Part shown: positions 2,136-48,270 of the stretch, in pieces
Layout of the letters: every line of letters begins with the position of its first letter
How positions within the stretch are numbered: position 1 is the first letter of the stretch
Source of the DNA: Candidatus Lloydbacteria bacterium
GTDB taxonomy: Bacteria > Patescibacteriota > Minisyncoccia > Phycocordibacterales > UBA6899
Reading direction: 5' to 3'
Length of the DNA stretch: 64,000 nucleotides
NCBI GenBank assembly: GCA_043719805.1
Contig: JAYSTI010000051.1
Location: 36,816-100,815, forward strand
Made by a program: the position numbers and the translations under genes
Notes under the pieces: generated by a model
What the model was told of the DNA's origin: nothing
What the model saw: only the letters and a program-made list of their open reading frames with translations
Database searches by the model: none

Positions 2136-3931
<1,796 letters not shown>

Positions 3932-4069
3932 TGTTTAATTTCGCGAATAATGAAAGCCTAAGGTCATTCTTTAGCCTTGGAAGGTGTGACCTTGAAGAAG
4001 TTGGCTTTCGCAACAAAGACTCGACCTCGCTCATTATCGAAATATATACACTAAGTTGGAAGCAAAAAT

Positions 4070-4303
4070 ATGAAACTCACCATCGCAAAAATAGACAAAA
4101 TACTTTGGTCCGGAGAAGCGGAGTCTGTCTCAGTGCCCGGCACCGACGGCATGATGACCATCCTTAGTCATCACATGCCACTTATCACTACGCTTGAAAA
4201 AGGGGAAATACGTGTGAAAACAAAGGAGGGAGGACTAGAGTCATTCCCTATCGAAAAAGGCATGCTCGAAGTCAACAAAGAGGAAACTGTCATCCTCGTC
4301 TAA
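4070..4303 (+). CDS. atpC: ATP synthase epsilon subunit, short form (beta-sandwich only, no C-terminal helical hairpin)
   Basis: MKLTIAKIDKILWSGEAESVSVPGTDGMMTILSHHMPLIT... epsilon N-domain; only 77 aa. Confidence 0.8.
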   Translation: MKLTIAKIDKILWSGEAESVSVPGTDGMMTILSHHMPLITTLEKGEIRVKTKEGGLESFPIEKGMLEVNKEETVILV

Positions 4304-4407
4304 TCTAAACTGCAGAGGTCCGTCCTCTCTAGTTTTTGGTTAAGTTGCTCTTGCATAATGCGGCGTTTTGCGGTAAAACTTTCATATTAATATTTTTTTA
4401 AAGCTTT

Positions 4408-4980
4408 ATGAATAAAAAGATACTTGTATCGGCGACAATGTTCGCGCTTGTGCTCGCGTATGTGCTACCGTTTTCAGTCAACGTCGGCCACATGCCCGAG
4501 GCATCAGCTGCGCAGTCAGACTATTTACTTGAACTCGACGGGATTGACGGAGAGTCAACTATCGAAGGTAAGGAAAAGCAGATGCAGATCGAAAGTTGGA
4601 GTTTTGGCGCATCAAACCCCACATCGGTAGGGAGTAGTGGTATGTCAGGAGGCAAAGTCTCGTTTCAGGACTTTCACTTCACCAAGCAAGTAGGCAAGGC
4701 TTCCCCGAAGCTCTTACTCGCGTGTGCAAGTGGTAAGCATATTCCTAAGGCAACACTTTCTGTTTTGCGCCCCGGTGCAGACCGTTCGATGATGTACATC
4801 AAGTACACATTTACAGACATCATGGTCACTTCCTGTAAGCAGTCTGCAGACCCGCTTATGGAATCAATCTCGTTTAATTATACAAAGATCGAGATGTCAT
4901 ACACCCCAATGACAAGCAGCGGCACCGCAGGTACGGCGGTTACAGCAGGGTGGGACCTCGGAAAGGGCAAGGCACTCTAG
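4408..4980 (+). CDS. Hcp-like (Hcp1/TssD family fold) protein with N-terminal Sec signal peptide
   Basis: Signal-peptide-like N-terminus MNKKILVSATMFALVLAYVL...SAAQS. Then the Hcp core pattern: LELDGIDGES..., ...SWSFG..., GGKVSFQDFHFTK, ASPKLLLACASGKHIPKATL..., ...TAGWDLGKGK. Confidence 0.6.
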   Translation: MNKKILVSATMFALVLAYVLPFSVNVGHMPEASAAQSDYLLELDGIDGESTIEGKEKQMQIESWSFGASNPTSVGSSGMSGGKVSFQDFHFTKQVGKASPKLLLACASGKHIPKATLSVLRPGADRSMMYIKYTFTDIMVTSCKQSADPLMESISFNYTKIEMSYTPMTSSGTAGTAVTAGWDLGKGKAL

Positions 4981-5002
4981 AAGTTTGCGGAAAATTTGAG
5001 TC

Positions 5003-5046
5003 AAAAACCCCCCTAGATTCTACCTCAGATTTTAGGGGTTTTTTGA
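5003..5046 (+). terminator. rho-independent terminator after Hcp-like gene
   Basis: aaaaacccccctag...ttttaggggtttttt GC stem flanked by A-tract and T-tract. Confidence 0.4.
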
Positions 5047-5122
5047 ACCAGAAAATACATTTTATCCAAGGGTACCTCTTGAAAATTTGGAGATACATAC
5101 AAGTTTCCCACAGGATATTCAT

Positions 5123-5160
5123 GAAATGTGCTTGCCAAGATGCACATTTTCTGCTATATT
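5123..5160 (+). promoter_or_regulatory. candidate sigma70-type promoter overlapped by an inverted repeat (possible operator)
   Basis: TTGCCA (5132-5137), 17-nt spacer, TATATT (5155-5160). Palindrome GAAATGTGC...GCACATTTTC (5123-5151) overlaps the -35 and spacer. Confidence 0.35.
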
Positions 5161-5294
5161 CCTCGCAAGTTCATTTCTATAAGGATTTTTGGAGGAAACG
5201 AACCGAGATCTCAAGCGCATAAATGCGTTTATGGTTTCTCTTATTTTGATTATCAAACCCGGCGCAATTCCGGAAATAAATTTAATAACAATAC

Positions 5295-8200
5295 ATGACC
5301 AAGTCATTATTTGTATCGTCAGGTTATCGCACAACGCTTCGTAAGCTTGCTGCGGGTTTTCTCATGCTCTCAATCAACCTCACCGGAGGCCTCGGAGCAC
5401 TTTTTTTAACAACCGAGGTTGCGTATGCAGTAGATGCTCGCCCGGACCTTACAATTACGAAAACACACGAAGGAAATACGTACCTTAATGGGAGTTTCAA
5501 ATGGAAACTCCGTGTGGCAAATGTTGGAAATGCAGATGCTGTTTTCGGTAAAAACAACACGCTACTCCATGACAACATGCCGAGCGTTGGTGTTAATGAT
5601 TATGGCTCACCAACCTACACCACTTCATCGGGAGTATCAGTGATTGGGTCTATTTCTTGTACTCAAGGTGGAAGTGACAATGAAAATTTAACTTGCAAAG
5701 TTAGTAACACAAATGGTGATAGCGTAAGAATGGCACCAAGCAGCTTTTTTGATGTATTTGTAGATGTGAATCCGAACTCCGTAGGAACACTCACAAATCC
5801 ACGCTCACAGGGAATCTGTGTTGTGGACAAAGCTAATTCGAGTGGAGATAGTATTGTAGATGAGTCAAACGAGAATAATAATACTTGCTCCAACAGCGTA
5901 ACGGTAATAAATTCACCAAAGACATTGGAGGTAACAAAGACTGGCAGCACGGGACTGGGCACTGTCTCAGCAACGGGTATCAACTGTGATGTTGCCAATA
6001 CAGACTGCTCAGAAACATACACGCACGGAACAAACGTTACGCTTTCTGCGGTCGCTGCTGTCGGCTCAACATTTACAGGATGGTCAGGTTCTGGTTGTTC
6101 AGGCATCAACCTCTGCTTCGTTTCGATGACAGCTGCAAAGACGGTCAACGCGACATTTACACTCAATTCGTATTTGCTCACTGCTGCTAAAATCGGCAAT
6201 GGATCAGGTGCTGTTTCCTCCAATCCTGCGGGCATAAATTTTGGTGACGACTCCTCTGAGTCGTACACTCACGGCACGGCAATCGTCATGACCGCTACTC
6301 CTGCTACTGGTTCTACCTTTGCAGGTTGGTCAGGAGGTGGATGCACAGGCACAGGCAGTACATGCACCGTGACACTTACGGCAGCAACGACGGTCACTGC
6401 ATCCTTTACTCTAAATAGCTACGGTGTCACTGCAGCAAAAGCTGGCAATGGTGACGGAACAATAACCTCAACCCCCGCAGGTATTAACTGCGGTACAGCT
6501 TGTAATGAAATATTTAGTTTCGGAGCCCTTGTCACACTTTCTGCTTCATCGATGACTGGTTCAACATTCGCTGGCTGGTCAGGAGGCGTATGTTCGGGTG
6601 CAATCTGCTCCTTTATTGTTGATGCAGCAAAGTCCGTTATTGGAACTTTCACGCTTAATACGCACACGCTCAATGTTGGTACAGTAGGACTCGGCTCAGT
6701 GTCCTCAAGTCCCGGACTGGGTATTTCTTGCCCTGGTGTCTGCATGGAAAGCTATGCACACGGCACTGACGTTACCCTCATCCCAACACCAAGCACGGGC
6801 TACGCATTCTTCGGATGGAGCGGCGCATGCACTGGAAGCGGTAGTTGCGTCGTTGACATGACAGAAGCAAGAGAAGTTGTCGCGACATTCTCTGCAATTC
6901 CTGCTGAGCCTTGCCCTTCGGGAACAACTGGACCAGGCGTACCAAATTGTGCACCAATTCCCCCACAATCGTGTGAGGAAAACACTTCGACAATGACCCG
7001 TGTTTCAAGTACGACAGATGTGACGGTGGGTACACCAACTGGCGGGGCCGCAGTTGCAGTAGGATTCATTCATAGCGAATGGACAGCTTCAATCCCCGGT
7101 GCAACTTGGATATGGAGTGAAAGCCCCGTCAGCAATATCGCAGTTGACCACATCGAGTCATTCTTTGATGTCTTCACAGTTGCAGGGACTCCAACAGGAG
7201 GTACGCTTACGGTAGCTGGTGATAATTCATTCGAGGTATATCTCAATGGCACGCAGATTTTACAGGACTCTTCAGGTACAACATTTGGCTCTGCAGTCTC
7301 TACTTCTACAGGTGTGTCACTTGTGGGCGGTCAGAATACACTTGAGTTCCGTGTAAAAAATTGGGGAGTAGGTAGTACACAAGCTAACCCCGCAGGACTT
7401 CTCTATAGCCTTACCGTAAACAAAAATGCTTGTGTGCCGGTAGTAGCTCCAGTCTGCGAGCAACAGGTTAATCTCATAGAAAACGGAGGATTTGAGGTAC
7501 CCACAGTTTTATCTTGGGAGATCATCCCGTTCACTAATGCTGCGCTCAAGTGGCTTGGTGCATTTGTTACCCCGGGCGGCCTAGGCAGATTTGGCCTCGA
7601 ACTTCAAGCGGGCGTGGCAGGTGCACCGCATAATGGCAGTGCGCAGCTTGCTGAACTCGATGGTGATCATCCCACACGCATCTATCAGGATGTCGCCACT
7701 ATCCCTGGCAATGACTATTCATTGACTTACTTCTTCTCGCCGCGCCCTGATACGCCTATCTCCGAGAATATTCTTGAGGTAGCGGTTGGGGGTACAGTTA
7801 TTGATACGCATACTGGGACTACCTCGGGAAACACTGTTTGGACACCGCACACCAAAACTTTTGTTGCAACGGCAACAGTCACGCGCGTCGCATTTGCCGA
7901 TATTGGCAATGACGACAGCGGTTCAACTGGTGGCCTCGGTTCATACCTCGACGACGTGAAGTTCAGCTGTGTTGGCGTGCACGTACCAAAGGCAACTGTT
8001 GTTGCAACAAAGATTGTTTGTGACGCTGAGTCCTATCTTCCGGACTGGAGTGGGCAGTCGCACGTGATTGGCGCAACAACAGCAGCGGACTTTGTCGCAG
8101 CAAGCGGCGGCAAGTGCCGCATCGCCCCTGAATGGAAGTTCCAGTGGTCTCCGACCTCAGCAGGGAACCCGGGGGACAATGTCACCGGGGAAGTTTCCGG

Positions 8201-9452
8201 TTGGACTACATTTACGTCTTCTGCGGTCATCACACTTGGTAGTATGACCAGCGTCTGGGTCCGTGAGGTCTATGATGCTGCGTACGTCGCGTTCGCCGGT
8301 ATCACCAACACTAATCCGGTGGTGAGCGCAGAAATGTACTGTAATGGTGATGTGTATCACTATGACAACCTCGACTATGCAAACGGCCTCACTGATGGTG
8401 GAACCGTCTACTGTGTCGCATTCAACGCACTGAAGCCCGTGGCTGATACCTCTATGTCCGTCACCGTCATAAAGCATGTCATCAATAACAACGGCGGAAC
8501 AAAGGATGCGGAGGACTTCACACTTCACATACGACAGCCGGCTGTTGACATGTGCACCAATGTAGATGGCATGCAGGAGACCGTACCCGTGGAGATGTAT
8601 CGAGAAGGTGGAATGTGTTTCCCGTATAGTCAAAATACGCTCAATACTATCTTCGACTGGTTCTCTGTAAAGACTGCTTACGCAATGCCAATAATGCAGG
8701 TACTCTTTTCACCACAGACATTCCAAGGAAGCGAAGGGGGAACCATGGTCTCCGTTGCTTACGAAACCGACTATGTCGTGACTGAAGACGCTGATGCACT
8801 GTACACCACAACCTATAGTGCTGATTGTACCGGTCATGTTTCTCCAGGACAGCACAAGACATGTACGGTGACAAACAACGATATAGCTCCTGTTGTGTCA
8901 CCACCAGGCGGTGGCGGTGGAAGCTCGACGTTTGACTATTGGGGTTGTACCAATCCTTCCGCATCAAACTTCAATGCGCTTGCAAATCGTGATGATAATT
9001 CCTGCAAGATCGGCGGAGGCAATGGCGGAGGATCTGAAATCCCGCCTCTAGCTCCTCAGGGTGAAGTCTTGGGTGCATCCACTGCGGAGCCTGAGCTCCC
9101 ACTTCCTGCAGGTTGCTCCGCGTACATTCTTACTTACCAGAAATTGGGCAGGAAGAATGATGTTGAGGATGTGAAGCGCCTCCAGACATTCTTGAACGAG
9201 AGCATGAGTGCAAATCTCCCTGTGTCCGGACTCTTTGGCTCAATGACGAAATCCTGGGTCAAGAAATTCCAGAAGGCGCATAGTGCCGAAATCATTCAGC
9301 CTTGGATTGACGCAGGTCACGACATGAGTGGTCTCAAAGATGGTTCAGGTGTCGTCTACAAGACGACAAAGCGCGCGATCAATATTGCAAAGTGTGCAAC
9401 GCTGAACGAGCCAATGCCTGACCTTGCGAACGACGGCGGAATGACAAATTAA
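5295..9452 (+). CDS. 1385-aa secreted/cell-surface protein with five modules: N-terminal signal/anchor, DUF11/CARDB-like domain, four InlB-B-repeat-like modules, beta-sandwich region, C-terminal peptidoglycan-binding-like domain
   Basis: Hydrophobic N-terminus. RPDLTITKTHEGNTY...RVANVGNADA (DUF11/CARDB-like). Four ~83-aa repeats of the form G.G.V...P.GI.C...C...Y.HGT.VTL.A.P..GSTF.GWSG..C.G...C.V.M. NGGFEVP jelly-roll-like segment. C-terminal LQTFLNE...VSGLFGSMTKSWVKKFQKAH resembling PG_binding_1. Confidence 0.8.
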   Translation: MTKSLFVSSGYRTTLRKLAAGFLMLSINLTGGLGALFLTTEVAYAVDARPDLTITKTHEGNTYLNGSFKWKLRVANVGNADAVFGKNNTLLHDNMPSVGVNDYGSPTYTTSSGVSVIGSISCTQGGSDNENLTCKVSNTNGDSVRMAPSSFFDVFVDVNPNSVGTLTNPRSQGICVVDKANSSGDSIVDESNENNNTCSNSVTVINSPKTLEVTKTGSTGLGTVSATGINCDVANTDCSETYTHGTNVTLSAVAAVGSTFTGWSGSGCSGINLCFVSMTAAKTVNATFTLNSYLLTAAKIGNGSGAVSSNPAGINFGDDSSESYTHGTAIVMTATPATGSTFAGWSGGGCTGTGSTCTVTLTAATTVTASFTLNSYGVTAAKAGNGDGTITSTPAGINCGTACNEIFSFGALVTLSASSMTGSTFAGWSGGVCSGAICSFIVDAAKSVIGTFTLNTHTLNVGTVGLGSVSSSPGLGISCPGVCMESYAHGTDVTLIPTPSTGYAFFGWSGACTGSGSCVVDMTEAREVVATFSAIPAEPCPSGTTGPGVPNCAPIPPQSCEENTSTMTRVSSTTDVTVGTPTGGAAVAVGFIHSEWTASIPGATWIWSESPVSNIAVDHIESFFDVFTVAGTPTGGTLTVAGDNSFEVYLNGTQILQDSSGTTFGSAVSTSTGVSLVGGQNTLEFRVKNWGVGSTQANPAGLLYSLTVNKNACVPVVAPVCEQQVNLIENGGFEVPTVLSWEIIPFTNAALKWLGAFVTPGGLGRFGLELQAGVAGAPHNGSAQLAELDGDHPTRIYQDVATIPGNDYSLTYFFSPRPDTPISENILEVAVGGTVIDTHTGTTSGNTVWTPHTKTFVATATVTRVAFADIGNDDSGSTGGLGSYLDDVKFSCVGVHVPKATVVATKIVCDAESYLPDWSGQSHVIGATTAADFVAASGGKCRIAPEWKFQWSPTSAGNPGDNVTGEVSGWTTFTSSAVITLGSMTSVWVREVYDAAYVAFAGITNTNPVVSAEMYCNGDVYHYDNLDYANGLTDGGTVYCVAFNALKPVADTSMSVTVIKHVINNNGGTKDAEDFTLHIRQPAVDMCTNVDGMQETVPVEMYREGGMCFPYSQNTLNTIFDWFSVKTAYAMPIMQVLFSPQTFQGSEGGTMVSVAYETDYVVTEDADALYTTTYSADCTGHVSPGQHKTCTVTNNDIAPVVSPPGGGGGSSTFDYWGCTNPSASNFNALANRDDNSCKIGGGNGGGSEIPPLAPQGEVLGASTAEPELPLPAGCSAYILTYQKLGRKNDVEDVKRLQTFLNESMSANLPVSGLFGSMTKSWVKKFQKAHSAEIIQPWIDAGHDMSGLKDGSGVVYKTTKRAINIAKCATLNEPMPDLANDGGMTN
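5922..6915 (+). repeat. four tandem InlB B-repeat-like protein modules (divergent at DNA level) inside the large surface protein gene
   Basis: Repeats begin TLEVTKTGSTG / LLTAAKIGNGSG / GVTAAKAGNGDG / TLNVGTVGLGS, each containing GWSG and paired Cys. Confidence 0.6.
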
Positions 9453-9474
9453 GACTCATTTCACCTTATGCAAT

Positions 9475-9500
9475 AAACCCCTCAATCTGAGGGTTTTTTG
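9475..9500 (+). terminator. rho-independent terminator after surface protein gene
   Basis: aaacccctcaatctgagggtttttt. Confidence 0.5.
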
Positions 9501-9554
9501 CTTACCCGCAAAACATTAGTTGTGCTATTTACAAATCTGTGATATAGTTTTTCA

Positions 9555-10619
9555 ATGATTAAGTGGACAAAAAGACACTTCATTCCGACAAGTGAAAATC
9601 AGTTCCAGCCGCACTTCTTGCGTCTCAAGGTGGCGCTCTCCATCTTTCTTCTCGTCGTAACCATTGAGGCAACGTACCTTCTTGCAACAATAGCGCTCCT
9701 GCCTAGGAGTGAGCAGTTTGCAGCAATTTTTGCAGCCGTACTTATCGATCAGACTAATCAAGTACGACAAACCGACAGCCTGAGCACACTGCGTACCAAT
9801 CCTCTCTTGGAGAATGCGGCGCGCATGAAGGCCGAAGACATGGCTGCTAAGGGATACTTTGCGCATAATGCTCCGGACGGTAAAACCCCCTGGTACTGGT
9901 TCGACATAGCGGGATATGACTACGCAGCGGCGGGGGAGAATCTTGCCGTAAATTTTACCGACTCAAAAGACGTGACGGAAGCGTGGATGCGCTCACCGGG
10001 GCATCGCGCAAACATCATGAGCGGAAATTATACTGAGATAGGCGTTGCAACCGCCGCAGGCACCTACAAAGGGAAGCCCGCTATTTTTGTTGTGCAAGCA
10101 TTCGGCCGACCTTCCATCATTGCGCGACAGATCGAGCAGACATCCTCGACGGTGGCATCATTGACCGCACTTATCACCGGCAGTAATGCGCCTACTGTAA
10201 AGGCCGTACCGTCGGCCCTCGTCATAAAAACTGTTCCACCGCCACTCGCTGTGCCCGTAATGCGGATTCCGCAGGTGACCCCGGTGTCGCGCGAGGCGAA
10301 CATTCCGACCACAACCACCGTCGCCGGAGCAGAAACTGCAAAGCTTGATGCAGGAAATATTGTTGTCGCTTCTGCGGCTCCGGTCGTTGCAGCCCAGCCC
10401 TCGCAAGTCGCAAGGATTATCGCTTCCCCGCGCAGTATGACGACGACAATCTTCCTTATTTTCGGTGCACTTTTGTCGCTCGCACTAGGACTAGCGATAT
10501 TCATCAAGATACGTATTCAGCATCCGCACATAATCGCCAATGGCGTCTTGCTCATCGCCATTATGATTTCACTCACGATGATAAATGCCATACTTATGGC
10601 GTCACGCGGTGCAATATAG
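9555..10619 (+). CDS. membrane-anchored CAP/SCP/PR-1 (YkwD-like) domain protein
   Basis: N-terminal TM; CAP core AEDMAAKGYFAHNAPDGKTPWYWFD...GENLAVNF...EAWMRSPGHRANIMSGNYTEIGVA; Pro/Ala/Val-rich linker; C-terminal TM helices. Confidence 0.75.
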   Translation: MIKWTKRHFIPTSENQFQPHFLRLKVALSIFLLVVTIEATYLLATIALLPRSEQFAAIFAAVLIDQTNQVRQTDSLSTLRTNPLLENAARMKAEDMAAKGYFAHNAPDGKTPWYWFDIAGYDYAAAGENLAVNFTDSKDVTEAWMRSPGHRANIMSGNYTEIGVATAAGTYKGKPAIFVVQAFGRPSIIARQIEQTSSTVASLTALITGSNAPTVKAVPSALVIKTVPPPLAVPVMRIPQVTPVSREANIPTTTTVAGAETAKLDAGNIVVASAAPVVAAQPSQVARIIASPRSMTTTIFLIFGALLSLALGLAIFIKIRIQHPHIIANGVLLIAIMISLTMINAILMASRGAI

Positions 10620-10647
10620 GTCTTGAGTTATTCAAATAATAAATTTT

Positions 10648-11850
10648 ATGGAAAAAAATATAAATGCCGTCGTTGTGATTATGGGAATTGTCGCAGTAAT
10701 CGCCCTCGGGGTTTATTTTTTTGGCACTGAAACAACTATGCCTCCCGGACTTATTCCTTCTCCCGTTGCGACAGATACCGTTTCCTCCGTGGTCCCTACT
10801 GTGCCCGTAGTGCCGGCAAATTTACGAACAACAATCGTGAAGGAACCCGTGATGACAAAAACAAAGTCAGCCGAAATAGCAATTGCAGGCAAGCGCGCAC
10901 CTGAACTTGTCCTATCGTCTGGATTCTCAAATACTGACCCGCTACTTATGAAGGATTTCATCGGGAAGAAGGTAGTCTTGGTGAATTTTTGGACAACCAC
11001 TTCGGTGAACTCGCTGCGCACCATGCCGTATCTGAATCAGTGGCATTTTAAATACAAAGACAAGGGCTTGGTCATTCTTTCCGTACACACACCACAGTTT
11101 GCCTTCGAGCGCTCCAAGGTCACCGTCGACAAGGTGGCATTTGTGCACAACATGCTCCATCCCATCATGCTCGACAATCAATTTGGGACTTGGAATGCAT
11201 GGCATAACACCATCTGGCCTTCACAGTACCTTGTTGATGTCAGCGGCAATATTGTTTACACGCACATGGGAGAGGGTGGTTACGAGGCTATGGAAACAAA
11301 GATCAATGAATTACTGACTGCGCGTGCAAGGAAATTAAATTTGCCAGTGGAAACATATGGCGCTTTCGAGGTTCCCGCCGCCGCACAGTTGGTGGATCTC
11401 ACGAAGATTAAGAGTGGCGATATGTACTTCGGTTCAGCACGTAACAACACGCTCGCGAACGGCACGCCGCTCACCGACGGCGCACAGTACATGAAACCAT
11501 TTACGACGGTCTTGCCCAATAAGATATACCTCACGGGTTCCTGGAATATTTCAAAGGAATTTGCACGGTCGGCGATTGAGAAAGATGTCATCACCTTCAA
11601 GTACAACGCAAAAAATGTTTACGTAGTACTTGGCTCAACCAACATGACAAAAGTGCGCGTGACGCTTGATGGGCAGCCCCTTGGCGACAACGCAGGAAAA
11701 GATATTCGTCTTGAGAATGGCATCAGCAGCATATATGTTACCGATGAACGAATTTATGAGATTGTGAAAGGTGTCGACTACGGAGAGCATACCGTTGAGT
11801 TGTACGTAGAGGGCTCCGGTCTAGAGGCGTTCATTGTCATGTTCGGTTAA
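10648..11850 (+). CDS. DipZ-like thioredoxin-fold (redoxin) protein with CxxC replaced by SxxS, plus C-terminal beta-sandwich domain
   Basis: N-terminal TM; VVLVNFWTTTSVNSLRTMPYLNQWHFKYKDKGLVILSVHTPQFAFE...WNAW...WPSQYLVD..G.IVYTHMGEGGYE matches the DipZ/redoxin thioredoxin-like family where the motif is WxxSCINC. Confidence 0.65.
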   Translation: MEKNINAVVVIMGIVAVIALGVYFFGTETTMPPGLIPSPVATDTVSSVVPTVPVVPANLRTTIVKEPVMTKTKSAEIAIAGKRAPELVLSSGFSNTDPLLMKDFIGKKVVLVNFWTTTSVNSLRTMPYLNQWHFKYKDKGLVILSVHTPQFAFERSKVTVDKVAFVHNMLHPIMLDNQFGTWNAWHNTIWPSQYLVDVSGNIVYTHMGEGGYEAMETKINELLTARARKLNLPVETYGAFEVPAAAQLVDLTKIKSGDMYFGSARNNTLANGTPLTDGAQYMKPFTTVLPNKIYLTGSWNISKEFARSAIEKDVITFKYNAKNVYVVLGSTNMTKVRVTLDGQPLGDNAGKDIRLENGISSIYVTDERIYEIVKGVDYGEHTVELYVEGSGLEAFIVMFG

Positions 11851-12569: not shown

Positions 12570-12700
12570 ATAGTGCTTTTATCGAGAGTGTGGAGTAGGG
12601 AATTGGCCCGACGATACCACCAGCAACCACCTTTGGAGAGGACCGGTGCTAAATCCAAGCCCCTATGGGGAAGATGAATGTGGTTGGAGGAATGATGGCA
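12570..12700 (+). promoter_or_regulatory. SAM-I (S-box) riboswitch
   Basis: cttttATCGAGAGtgtGGAGtAGGGAatTGGCCCGACGAtaCCacCAGCAACC...GGTGCTAAATCCaAGC matches the S-box consensus core (AUCnAGAGnnGGnGGAGGGAnnGGCCCgAuGAA...GCAACC...GGUGCUAAAUCC); immediately upstream of metK. Confidence 0.75.
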
Positions 12701-12702
12701 AC

Positions 12703-12742
12703 CAAAAAAGTCTTTCTGCAAAGGAAGGCTTTTTTGTTTTTT
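12703..12742 (+). terminator. riboswitch expression-platform intrinsic terminator
   Basis: aaaaaagtctttc-tgcaaa-ggaaggctttttt followed by gtttttt. Confidence 0.55.
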
Positions 12743-12788
12743 CTTGATTGCGCCTTGGATGTATTTTATTTTTTTAATCGCTTCGTCT

Positions 12789-13841
12789 ATGTCAAACGTT
12801 CAGAGTATTTATACGGTGGAGAGTGTTACAGAAGGTCATCCTGATAAAATGTGCGATCAGATATCAGATGCGGTTCTCGATGCATGCCTCGCGCAGGATC
12901 CGAAGAGTCGCGTTGCAATAGAAAGTTTTGGCGCGCATGGTTTGCTCGTCATCGGGGGGGAGCTCACAACTGATGCCACGATCGACGCCGAGACAATCGC
13001 GCGTGAGGTGTACAAGGACATCGGGTACGATGATGACCTAGAAATTATCACACGTATCGTGCAGCAGTCACCCGACATCGCGATGGGGGTTGACACTGAT
13101 GGTGCCGGCGATCAGGGTATCATGTATGGCTACGCGACAAATGAAACGCCCGAGTATCTTCCCGGCGGAATTACTCTGGTTCACAAGCTCACAAAGGGTT
13201 TGAGTGAACTTCGCAAAAGCGGGGAATTGGACTGGCTTCGACCCGACGGAAAGGCGCAGGTGACCATCGAAAACGGAAAGGTGCGCACCGTGCTGGTTTC
13301 AACGCAACACGCCGATTCGATTACTCAGCAGGAGATACGGCAGGCGCTCATCGATAAGCTCATCCGCCCACTCGTCGGTGACGTCGGTCGCATTGAGATA
13401 CTGGTCAATCCGACTGGCAGATTCGTTCAAGGGGGATTTGAGGCAGACACGGGGCTCACGGGCCGAAAGCTCATGGTAGACACGTATGGCGGCCTTGTGG
13501 CGCACGGAGGAGGGGCATTCTCGGGGAAAGACGCCACAAAAGTCGATCGTTCTGCGGCCTATATGGCCCGCTACGTCGCCAAGAATCTCGTTGCAAACAA
13601 ACATGCAAATGAGGCTACGGTATCGGTCGCTTACGCCATCGGGCACCCTCTGCCGCTTATGGTTTCTGCGATTGATGAAGATGGGCGCGACATCAGTGAG
13701 GCCGTCAAAAAACGATTTGATTTTCGCCCGAAAGCAATCATTCAACAATTGAATTTGCGCCGCCCCATCTATCGGCAAACTGCTTCATATGGTCACTTTG
13801 GTAAAGCAGGTCTTCCGTGGGAGGAGGTCATCAAGATGTAA
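12789..13841 (+). CDS. metK: S-adenosylmethionine synthetase
   Basis: ESVTEGHPDKMCDQISDAVLDA, GDQGIMYGYATNETPEYLP, DTYGG, GAFSGKDATKVDRSAAY motifs; start chosen at 12789 (ORF-track start 12744 would lie inside the riboswitch terminator). Confidence 0.9.
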   Translation: MSNVQSIYTVESVTEGHPDKMCDQISDAVLDACLAQDPKSRVAIESFGAHGLLVIGGELTTDATIDAETIAREVYKDIGYDDDLEIITRIVQQSPDIAMGVDTDGAGDQGIMYGYATNETPEYLPGGITLVHKLTKGLSELRKSGELDWLRPDGKAQVTIENGKVRTVLVSTQHADSITQQEIRQALIDKLIRPLVGDVGRIEILVNPTGRFVQGGFEADTGLTGRKLMVDTYGGLVAHGGGAFSGKDATKVDRSAAYMARYVAKNLVANKHANEATVSVAYAIGHPLPLMVSAIDEDGRDISEAVKKRFDFRPKAIIQQLNLRRPIYRQTASYGHFGKAGLPWEEVIKM

Positions 13842-46437: not shown

Positions 46438-48270
46438 ATGGCTATGCTAACCTCAACTGAAATTCGTTCACGGTTCCTGGCATTTTTCAAGGAACGCGGT
46501 CACGCCATCATACCGAGCGCACCGCTCATACCTCTTAATGATGCTTCGGTGCTTTTCAATACGGCAGGAATGCAGCCTCTGGTGCCCTATCTTCTTGGAG
46601 AGCCGCATCCGGCCGGAGTGCGTCTTGCAAACAGCCAAAAGTGCGTGCGCACACAAGACATTGAAGAGATCGGCGATAACACACACGATACGTTTTTTGA
46701 AATGTTGGGCAATTGGTCGTTGGGAGACTACTTTAAAAAAGAAGCCATAAATTGGAGTTATGAATTCCTTACATCAAAAGAATTGGGGCTCAGCCTTGAT
46801 CCAAATCGTCTTTACGTGACTGTTTTTGGTGGCAATACCGATGCACCGAGAGACGACGAGGCACACATGATATGGAAAGAAATTTTTGAAAATGCCGGAG
46901 TAATAGGGGAGCGCATCTACTTCATGACGGCGGATGTAAAGGGGAAGGAGCCAAATTGGTGGAGTGCCGGCGACTCTGGTCCGTGCGGTCCTGATACCGA
47001 AATGTTCTACGATGTTACGGGAAATCTCAACAAAGGAATGACTAAGGCAGAATACATGACTGCAGACGACAAACAGCATGTCGTCGAGATTTGGAATGAC
47101 GTATTCATGGAATATCTCAAGAAAGACGGAATGGTGGTCGGAAAGCTCGAGAAACAAAATGTGGACACGGGAAGTGGGCTTGAGCGCGTCACTATGGTAT
47201 CGCAAGGAAAGGACAATATTTTTGCAACGGATATGTTTTCTGGAATGATGAAGATCATTTCCGATAATGCATCCACATACAATGAACGCTCGGCGCGCAT
47301 CGTCGCTGACCATATTCGCACGTCAGTATTTCTTATTGCTGATGGCGTTACACCCTCAAATACCGACCAAGGATACATTTTGCGCCGTCTCTTAAGACGC
47401 GCAGTGCGCTACTCTGACGTCCTTGTACTCAGGGGGGGATTTGATGCGCTCATCGAGGAGGTGGCAAAAACATATGAAGGTGTATATGAAAATGTTTCCG
47501 CAAATCTCATGCAGATTAAAAAAGAGGTCAAGGATGAGGAGGAGCGATTCCGAAAAACGCTTACCGCTGGAATGAAGGAATTTGAACGATTTTCTCATGA
47601 AAAACGTATTTCTGGAACTGATGCTTTTATTTTGTTTTCTACATTCGGGTTTCCATTTGAACTCACTAAAGAACTTGCAGCAGAAAGAAACATAGAAATG
47701 ATGGAGGAGTATGATTTTTATGACCAAATGAAAAAACACCAGAATCTCTCTCGTGCAGGGTCGGAACAAAAATTTAAGGGTGGTCTTGCCGACGATTCCG
47801 CAGAGACAGTTCGTCTCCATACCGCACACCACCTGCTTCTACGCGCATTACAGATCGTACTGGGCCCCGACGTCCATCAACGTGGCTCAAATATCACCGG
47901 AGAGCGCTTGCGCATTGATTTTGCTTCTCCGGCAAAATTGACTGACGAACAGAAAAAGGCAGTGGAAGACATCGTCAATGAAAAAATTGCTGAAGATTTG
48001 CCGGTTATAAAAACTGAAATGACCCTTGAGGAGGCTGAAAAGCTCGGTGCAGAGCACGAGTTTGGCGCAAAGTATCCTGAGCGAGTCTCCGTTTACTCTG
48101 TCGGGCCAAAGGATGCGACTCCGGAGAATCCGCAACTCGACAAACGCTTCTCTGTGGAATTTTGTGGTGGGCCGCACGTCACCCACACCGGCGAATTAGG
48201 GAGGTTCCGCATCCTCAAAGAAGAGGCATCAAGCCAAGGTGTGCGCAGAATAAAGGCCATACTTGAATAG
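46438..48270 (+). CDS. alaS: alanyl-tRNA synthetase, short form (610 aa; lacks C-terminal extension)
   Basis: class II AlaRS N-terminus RSRFLAFFKERGHAIIPSAPLIP...LFNTAGMQPL; editing-domain HxxxH (HTAHHLLLRAL). Confidence 0.9.
   Translation: MAMLTSTEIRSRFLAFFKERGHAIIPSAPLIPLNDASVLFNTAGMQPLVPYLLGEPHPAGVRLANSQKCVRTQDIEEIGDNTHDTFFEMLGNWSLGDYFKKEAINWSYEFLTSKELGLSLDPNRLYVTVFGGNTDAPRDDEAHMIWKEIFENAGVIGERIYFMTADVKGKEPNWWSAGDSGPCGPDTEMFYDVTGNLNKGMTKAEYMTADDKQHVVEIWNDVFMEYLKKDGMVVGKLEKQNVDTGSGLERVTMVSQGKDNIFATDMFSGMMKIISDNASTYNERSARIVADHIRTSVFLIADGVTPSNTDQGYILRRLLRRAVRYSDVLVLRGGFDALIEEVAKTYEGVYENVSANLMQIKKEVKDEEERFRKTLTAGMKEFERFSHEKRISGTDAFILFSTFGFPFELTKELAAERNIEMMEEYDFYDQMKKHQNLSRAGSEQKFKGGLADDSAETVRLHTAHHLLLRALQIVLGPDVHQRGSNITGERLRIDFASPAKLTDEQKKAVEDIVNEKIAEDLPVIKTEMTLEEAEKLGAEHEFGAKYPERVSVYSVGPKDATPENPQLDKRFSVEFCGGPHVTHTGELGRFRILKEEASSQGVRRIKAILE

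Follow-up and report, generated by a model that had tools for sequence, protein, structure and literature searches.

A putative wall-anchored, multi-lectin adhesin of modular design in a Candidatus Lloydbacteria genome

The gene and its product

The stretch of 64,000 nucleotides analysed here (the window; contig JAYSTI010000051.1 of assembly GCA_043719805.1, positions 36,816 to 100,815) comes from a Candidatus Lloydbacteria bacterium of the Patescibacteriota, and carries at 5295-9452 a gene for a large multi-module protein, below called the big gene. A sequence-only reading of the window, made without database searches, had taken its product for a secreted surface protein of adhesin type with a peptidoglycan-binding-like domain at the C-terminus, and profile searches and structure prediction agree with this description. 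The gene and the modules of its product, numbered in amino acids (aa), are as follows; coordinates are those of the window unless a locus handle (L003 and so on) precedes them.

5295..9452, + strand: open reading frame (ORF) of the big gene, ATG start, 1385 aa, stop codon within the coordinates
5295..5429, + strand: predicted signal peptide, aa 1-45, with basic n-region, hydrophobic aa 18-38 and AYA/V
5430..5918, + strand: CARDB-like domain of ~160 aa, aa 46-208, proposed distal tip, assigned indirectly via a homologue
5919..6170, + strand: InlB B-repeat 1, aa 209-292 (Flg_new_2)
6171..6419, + strand: InlB B-repeat 2, aa 293-375, first Cys pair lost (Flg_new_2)
6420..6662, + strand: InlB B-repeat 3, aa 376-456 (Flg_new_2)
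6663..6899, + strand: InlB B-repeat 4, aa 457-535 (Flg_new_2)
6900..6971, + strand: Pro/Cys-rich linker, aa 536-559, recognized by composition
6972..7442, + strand: X1, CBM67-like calcium-type lectin module, aa 560-716, with D643-N644 as candidate Ca2+/sugar dyad
7443..7982, + strand: DUF642/choice-of-anchor-C-like module, aa 717-896, opening with NGGFEVP
7983..8450, + strand: X2, beta-sandwich domain of ~155 aa, aa 897-1052, without a database model
8451..8894, + strand: X3, split SpaA/prealbumin-like domain with a Cys-containing insertion of ~65 aa, aa 1053-1200, matches sub-threshold
8895..9080, + strand: Gly-rich linkers around a Cys-bounded mini-module of ~30 aa, WGCTNPSASNFNALANRDDNSC, aa 1201-1262, found in 10 relatives
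9081..9449, + strand: C module, PG_binding_1 domain of three helices that has an inserted loop and the Cys pair C1274/C1367, proposed wall anchor

An identical protein (P0001), flanked by the same neighbours, is present in one NCBI assembly and two Logan run assemblies. The composition, rich in Thr, Gly, Ser and Val and with 36 Cys that pair by domain, is typical for extracellular repeat proteins. The sole hydrophobic segment of the protein, aa 18-38, is preceded by Arg/Lys and followed by AYA/V, and no further membrane segment is found. Since this only hydrophobic segment is N-terminal and has AYA/V after it, the protein is predicted to be exported via Sec, and the cytoplasmic location that would have spoken against a surface protein is not what the N-terminus indicates. 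There are no paralogues of the big gene inside the window, and a search of the whole protein against PDB sequences with phmmer gave no match. Pfam and NCBIfam searches found no catalytic domain in the protein. An identity as an enzyme was considered and set aside, as these searches matched no catalytic family.

The C-terminal peptidoglycan-binding module

The C-terminal segment had been likened to PG_binding_1 from its sequence, and three lines of evidence bear this out. PG_binding_1 (PF01471) scores 23.6 bits with the whole protein and 27.9 bits with the segment, above the cut-off of 23, over profile positions 3-41 of 57, and all 36 aligned relatives match the same family (best E 7.5e-10). 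A profile of the module finds in the PDB the peptidoglycan-binding domains of the endolysins 7rum (2.8e-6) and phiKZ gp144 (3bkh), and further those of the D-Ala-D-Ala carboxypeptidase 1lbu, 4xxt and SleB. The AlphaFold2 (AF2) model (predicted local distance difference test, pLDDT, 85) has helices at module residues 29-43, 55-78 and 95-105, and the top Foldseek matches, with probabilities of 0.93-0.99, are without exception PG_binding_1 domains: 5tv7, 6tci and 5nm7 (0.97-0.99), and CtpB. Superposition gives a template modelling (TM) score of 0.51 and a root-mean-square deviation of 2.4 with 5tv7, and a TMt of 0.78 with 6tci. The Pfam match stops past helix 2 because a loop of ~15 residues is inserted before helix 3, and the module is probably stapled by the conserved Cys pair C1274/C1367.

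Among the roughly 100 relatives the chain almost invariably ends with the C module, while X1, DUF642, X2 and SpaA-like modules vary in order and number. For this reason the C module is regarded as the anchor and not as a passenger. The protein ends in ...DLANDGGMTN and has no C-terminal hydrophobic segment. An LPXTG sorting signal is absent, the sole LPxxG being LPVSG at aa 1308, inside the peptidoglycan-binding domain; a sortase-anchored adhesin was thus ruled out.

The design resembles that of the non-covalently wall-anchored proteins of monoderms, such as Listeria InlB and proteins with GW, LysM, SH3b, CWB or SLH modules (PMC5817068): signal peptide, a passenger of repeats and binding modules, a C-terminal wall-binding module and, as in InlB, the B-repeat. 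It differs from them in that the anchor is PG_binding_1 and not GW, LysM or SLH, leucine-rich repeat/internalin domains are lacking, the passenger is rich in lectin modules, and the organism belongs to the candidate phyla radiation (CPR). By the usual logic of these anchors (PMC5817068), the C module may bind the murein of its own cell.

Lectin-type modules

X1 is a CBM67-like lectin module (CBM, carbohydrate-binding module), as judged from profile matches and an aligned residue pair. A profile built from 30 copies matches in the PDB the oyster-mushroom lectin from Pleurotus ostreatus (6t1d/6kbj, E 2e-13) and residues 134-232 of the Streptomyces avermitilis rhamnosidase SaRha78A (3w5m, E 3.1e-12). 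SaRha78A carries a calcium-dependent, sugar-binding CBM67 (PMC4690510, PMC11512411), and residues 134-232 of 3w5m are read here as that CBM67. The pair D643-N644 is invariant in the 30 X1 copies and stands in the same column as D179-N180 of 3w5m and the DD of the lectin. In Shictin, a related lectin, the Asp pair D43/D44 takes part in Ca2+-mediated sugar binding (PMC11512411); the role of the dyad D179/N180 is drawn from secondary sources (PMC11512411, PMC4690510). D643-N644 is therefore a candidate Ca2+/sugar dyad. Glyco_hydro_2_N and Bac_rhamnosid_N give sub-threshold Pfam matches in a few X1 copies. Unlike the CBM67 of SaRha78A, X1 is not joined to an enzyme of glycoside hydrolase family 78, and it has features of its own, namely the bounding Cys pair C560/C713 and an NPAGLLY motif.

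The segment opening with NGGFEVP, which the sequence-only reading had called a CBM-like jelly-roll, begins a module that matches DUF642 (PF04862) with 27.0 bits, at the cut-off of 27. Precomputed matches to PF04862 exist in more than 40 relatives. A literature search combining Patescibacteria and DUF642 found nothing.

Stalk domains X2 and X3

X2 has no match in Pfam (2025 copy; member scan), in NCBIfam, or in the PDB by profile, and because it is without a Pfam or NCBIfam model it is a candidate new domain family. Its AF2 model, made from 32 homologues (pLDDT 88), is a beta-sandwich with one helix. Foldseek gives weak matches in the PDB (TM at most 0.38, E at least 6e-3), the best being domains of Gram-positive pilins and adhesins (RrgB D1, a Mobiluncus adhesin, Spy0125 and T-antigens). 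Against viral models (BFVD) Foldseek gave nothing significant, only weak beta-sandwich matches. In 84 copies four Cys are fully or almost invariant, as are K906, N1044, E991 and E1013 (83-84 of 84), and the model places K906 in the first and N1044 in the last strand. Up to four tandem copies of X2 occur in other Patescibacteria proteins (P0151, P0164, P0180).

X3 resembles the SpaA/prealbumin-like fold as described by the profiles PF19403, PF24514 and PF24547, to all of which it stays under the cut-off, so that a resemblance is all that is meant. Its start matches SpaA_2 (E 4e-4, 21.3 bits vs 25) and its end DUF7601 (DUF7601/SpaA_4-like; E 2e-3, 19.1 bits vs 27), both below cut-off; the X3 of the relative P0025 covers DUF7601 profile positions 2-115, likewise below cut-off (E 0.005). 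Relatives such as P0139 pass SpaA_4, but in other domains. X3 keeps K1060, N1194 and E1164 in all eight copies.

The Lys-Asn-Glu sets of X2 and X3 correspond to the residue pattern of isopeptide-bonded pilin domains, and an isopeptide bond is putative in both. The likeness to sortase-anchored pilins and MSCRAMMs (microbial surface components recognizing adhesive matrix molecules; CnaA/CnaB domains, as in RrgB, Spy0128 and SpaA) lies in the Ig-like/prealbumin-like stalk domains, in the invariant first-strand Lys, last-strand Asn and Glu of X2 and X3, and in the pilins being the best fold matches of X2. The protein differs from them in lacking LPXTG and a C-terminal membrane segment and in having domains that hold disulfides, and the fold matches are weak. 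The mini-module WGCTNPSASNFNALANRDDNSC in the Gly-rich linkers following X3 has no Pfam or NCBIfam match.

That X2 or the X3 insertion is instead the catalytic domain of a cell-wall hydrolase or other extracellular enzyme is extremely unlikely. PG_binding_1 is typical of wall hydrolases, proteins of this kind have been termed 'extracellular enzymes' (PMC10936435), and X2 has invariant Glu, Asp and Asn; yet X2 is predicted to be an all-beta, pilin-like sandwich and not a hydrolase fold, its tandem multiplication is the behaviour of a repeat, and no hydrolase family was matched.

N-terminal domain and InlB B-repeats

The domain following the signal peptide had been described as CARDB/DUF11-like. 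The CARDB part of this description is reached only by way of a homologue, and DUF11 falls away, since the isolated domain gave no match to PF01345 at E up to 10. The direct match to CARDB (PF07705) is below cut-off (E 0.029, 15 bits vs 22.7) and covers profile positions 1-36 only. The homologue P0221 has two tandem copies of the domain (35-40% identity, E 2e-19) and passes CARDB with 43.7 bits (E 3.3e-11) over profile positions 38-100; the two matches jointly span the whole profile, with an insertion between them. The domain is thus best described, from these profile matches, as an enlarged (~160 aa) CARDB-like domain. The domain type is widespread: an exhaustive search located it in 721 cluster representatives, often in long tandem series of up to 14 copies; a word-index search with the domain alignment had returned one protein only.

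The four Cys-pair repeats with the GWSG motif are InlB B-type repeats, as had been proposed, with the first Cys pair missing from repeat 2. Flg_new_2 (PF18998, divergent InlB B-repeat) matches in four stretches with 107.4 bits against a cut-off of 23.6 (E 3.5e-31), and Flg_new (PF09479; 37.5 bits vs 27) and TIGR02543 (23.4 vs 20.95) are also above cut-off. GWSG is present in all four. Their mutual identity of 30-51% in protein and 51-58% in DNA marks the repeats as old duplicates; a recent repeat expansion is ruled out by the low DNA identity.

Relatives and the syntenic locus

A homologue search with the whole protein was dominated by InlB-repeat proteins of Myxococcota and other phyla, and yielded as true orthologues P0007 and P0025 only. 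The relatives were therefore re-searched with the C-terminal 832 aa (aa 554-1385), which gave about 100 proteins. Those carrying a source name are all from Patescibacteria (Patescibacteria group, Ca. Pacebacteria/Paceibacterota, Minisyncoccia), which is consistent with the reduced genome. Across these relatives X1, DUF642, X2 and SpaA-like modules are shuffled.

In six genomes the locus is syntenic, with the atp operon, the big gene, a CAP/YkwD gene, usually a Redoxin + Thioredoxin_10 gene, DUF805, and metK with its S-adenosylmethionine (SAM) riboswitch. Identity at the syntenic locus is 47-67% over the C-terminal 832 aa. The anchor-proximal part is constant, X1-DUF642-(X2)-X3-mini-C, and the N-terminal part varies:

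Window protein P0001, 1385 aa: CARDB-like domain and four InlB repeats
P0007, 1488 aa: unrelated sequence and three repeats
P0025, 1265 aa: unrelated sequence and three repeats; X2 absent
P0124, 1339 aa: two repeats and a SpaA-like domain
P0122, 952 aa: no repeats
P0123, 1233 aa: no repeats

Between the window protein, P0007 and P0025 the signal peptide is conserved to 87% identity, yet the domain following it is unrelated, and for this reason the N-terminal swap looks, at the level of sequence, like cassette exchange between conserved flanks.

The protein belongs to a class that is already in the databases under generic names. Proteins of Patescibacteria/Paceibacteria called 'peptidoglycan-binding', 'DUF642 domain-containing' or 'choice-of-anchor C family' have the same modules and the terminal anchor, to which the window member adds a CARDB-like tip and four InlB B-repeats. 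In Paceibacteria parasitic on methanogens, functionally unassigned extracellular proteins with peptidoglycan-binding domains are highly expressed, and a role in host attachment has been proposed for them (PMC10936435); kinship with the proteins pointed to in that study is by description.

Upstream region and expression

The features flanking the big gene are:

5003..5046, + strand: terminator-like hairpin AAAAACCCC/GGGGTTTTT with a T-run, ending the Hcp-like gene and separating it from the big gene
5124..5149, no strand: inverted repeat AAATGTGC-N10-GCACATTT, perfect arms at 5124-5131 and 5142-5149, overlapping the -35 element, probably not functional
5132..5160, + strand: promoter-like TTGCCA-17-TATATT with extended -10 TG, 10 of 12 matches
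5166..5200, + strand: leader motif CAAGTTCATTTC...TGGAGGAAACG, directly 3' of the -10 element, kept in the window and in L003, L004, L007 and L008
9479..9503, + strand: terminator-like hairpin CCCTCAATCTGAGGG followed by TTTTTTGCTT, downstream of the big gene

The promoter-like sequence noted by the sequence-only reading is present, and owes its credibility to conservation and not to motif frequency. The 8.5-kb region contains ten promoter-like sites where 11.2 would be expected, and the motif by itself thus does not exceed chance; the promoter is credible because the -35 element (CTTGC) and the downstream leader are conserved in L003, L004, L007 and L008. Since terminator-like hairpins lie on both sides (5003-5046 and 9479-9503), the big gene is probably monocistronic.

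The same reading had seen an inverted repeat with 9-bp arms (5123-5151) over the promoter and suggested repressor control. The arms are 8 bp, and control by a repressor binding there is very unlikely. The repeat is perfect and flanks the -35 hexamer, which speaks for an operator, but by estimate ~0.2 such 8-bp repeats are expected by chance in the 320-nt spacer (arms within 60 nt), and the repeat is absent from the orthologous upstream regions of L003, L004, L007 and L008, which have kept the -35 element and the leader motif.

An Rfam search of the leader gave no match. Two small hairpins lie past the leader motif, at 5213-5230 and 5266-5280, and one of these shows a compensatory change, with CCGG..CCGG in the window and ACGG..CCGT in L003 and L004. 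The start codon of the big gene has no Shine-Dalgarno sequence. The public gene calls for P0007 and P0025 begin 42 codons too early, within the leader (L003 6206-6331, L004 374-499). The over-early extension, MLSxSSFSWRKRAK..., is non-coding in the window, where its frame is closed, and MT(K/T)SLF is for this reason taken as the real start.

Neighbouring genes

Three neighbours of the big gene also encode proteins with export or membrane segments:

4408..4980, + strand: Hcp1 homologue with N-terminal signal-like segment, found only in the window and in L008/L009
9555..10619, + strand: membrane-anchored protein of the CAP/YkwD family, downstream of the big gene in L004, L006, L007 and L008
10648..11850, + strand: membrane-anchored Redoxin + Thioredoxin_10 protein with CxxC changed to SVNS, beside CAP in L004, L007 and L008

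The sequence-only reading had joined all four genes into one contiguous extracytoplasmic module (4408-11850). The export or membrane segments of all four and the conserved order of big gene, CAP and thioredoxin-like gene sustain part of this idea; the Hcp-like gene does not fit, as only two of the six loci (the window and L008 6204-6779; copies 66% identical) have it, placed there between atpC and the big gene, and a single module is further at odds with the probably monocistronic big gene. A functional linkage of the big gene, CAP and Thioredoxin_10 is suggested since the trio persists in L007 within an otherwise different neighbourhood. About 30 nt separate CAP from the thioredoxin-like gene, and the latter from DUF805.

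Thioredoxin-like orthologues beside the big gene have SxxS or TxxS (L004 5428-6621, L007 12240-13484, L008 11983-13182), so that the cysteine-less state is conserved in the clade and not due to a sequencing error. A scan of the contig collection anchored on this gene gave one distant, non-syntenic locus, L005, whose homologue (3789-4994) retains CINC.

The Hcp-like protein is a full-length homologue of Hcp1, the tube protein of the type VI secretion system (Pfam E 2e-35; solved Hcp1 5xeu, E 3.5e-25), with a hydrophobic, signal-like N-terminal extension of ~35 aa. A Sec-type signal is unusual on Hcp. Genes of the type VI secretion system were not seen among the window ORFs scanned, and a literature search combining Patescibacteria and Hcp found nothing.

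The locus also bears on a reading of the big-gene protein as a structural envelope component or glycan-scavenging scaffold, which would capture environmental polysaccharides or organise the surface glycans of the cell itself instead of attaching one cell to another. It would suit the two CBM-type modules, of kinds otherwise joined to glycoside hydrolases, the housekeeping setting by the atp operon and metK, and the conserved, strong-looking promoter. This is nevertheless unlikely: neither the protein nor the locus offers a catalytic or transporter partner, and the swaps of distal modules among close relatives speak more for a specificity determinant than for a structural protein.

Elsewhere in the window, metK (12744-13841) is preceded by a SAM-I riboswitch (12576-12680, +; 55.9 bits vs a gathering score of 44.4), with a terminator-like hairpin at 12703-12736 between the two. 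The alanyl-tRNA synthetase ORF at 46438-48270 (+) encodes 610 aa with catalytic and SAD domains and a C-terminus that looks short.

Proposed mode of action and significance

Taken together, the product of the big gene is read, with a probability of roughly 0.6, as a Sec-exported, non-covalently wall-anchored, modular multi-lectin adhesin of a Patescibacteria (CPR) bacterium. The signal peptide (aa 1-45, AYA/V) is predicted to direct export, after which the C-terminal PG_binding_1 module, carried on Gly-rich linkers, would bind peptidoglycan, presumably of the own wall. Because the C-terminal module anchors to the wall, the chain would project outward, with X3 and X2 as stalk, followed by DUF642 and the CBM67-like module, then the four InlB B-repeats and the CARDB-like tip. 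The lectin modules and the swappable distal part may bind glycans of a partner or host, and the specificity of the adhesin may be altered by module exchange. In this way the big-gene protein may serve in host attachment.

Several points weigh against this reading. The Foldseek E values of the C module, a small domain, are weak (about 0.5 or higher), and PG_binding_1 domains are found mostly in wall hydrolases and could bind the wall of a partner. The window protein alone has no significant match in the PDB, so that the link of X1 to CBM67 depends on the family profile. The DUF642 score, exactly at the cut-off, covers profile positions 66-147 only, and choice-of-anchor C (TIGR04362) is below cut-off, with 47.2 bits vs 120.

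The orientation could also be the reverse, with an uncleaved N-terminal segment in the membrane and the C module bound to peptidoglycan of another bacterium, a host or prey. With about 21 residues the hydrophobic segment is long, and it belongs to the most conserved N-terminal part, and Kuroda et al. have proposed a host-attachment role for peptidoglycan-binding domains (PMC10936435). On the other hand, AYA/V past the hydrophobic core agrees with a signal-peptidase site, non-covalent anchors of monoderms usually consist of a terminal wall-binding module past flexible Gly linkers, and the variable modules would sit by the membrane beneath the wall, where their variability is hard to explain. 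The one documented set of Paceibacteria hosts (PMC10936435) are, moreover, archaea, which are without murein. The reversed arrangement is thus quite unlikely.

The reading as an outward-facing, wall-anchored adhesin can be taken further, tentatively and with odds well below even, to a host-specificity determinant of an episymbiotic Patescibacterium: a multi-lectin adhesin whose distal cassettes would be exchanged between the signal peptide and an X1-DUF642 core, whose stalk would include X2 as an undescribed, Patescibacteria-centred domain family held by disulfides and a Lys-Asn isopeptide bond, and whose partners would be CAP and the cysteine-less thioredoxin-fold protein.

To our knowledge, host recognition and attachment by the ultra-small CPR/Patescibacteria are largely unknown beyond a few Saccharibacteria models. 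What is new here is modest: the CBM67-like assignment with its conserved dyad, X2 with its pilin-like residue pattern, and the arrangement of constant core and variable tip at a conserved locus. Should the protein prove to be a generic envelope component only, the interest would be routine. The class is, however, abundant and annotated merely as 'peptidoglycan-binding' or 'DUF642', and its dissection yields experimental handles in the terminal murein anchor, the CBM67-like core, the pilin-like X2 and the swappable tip.

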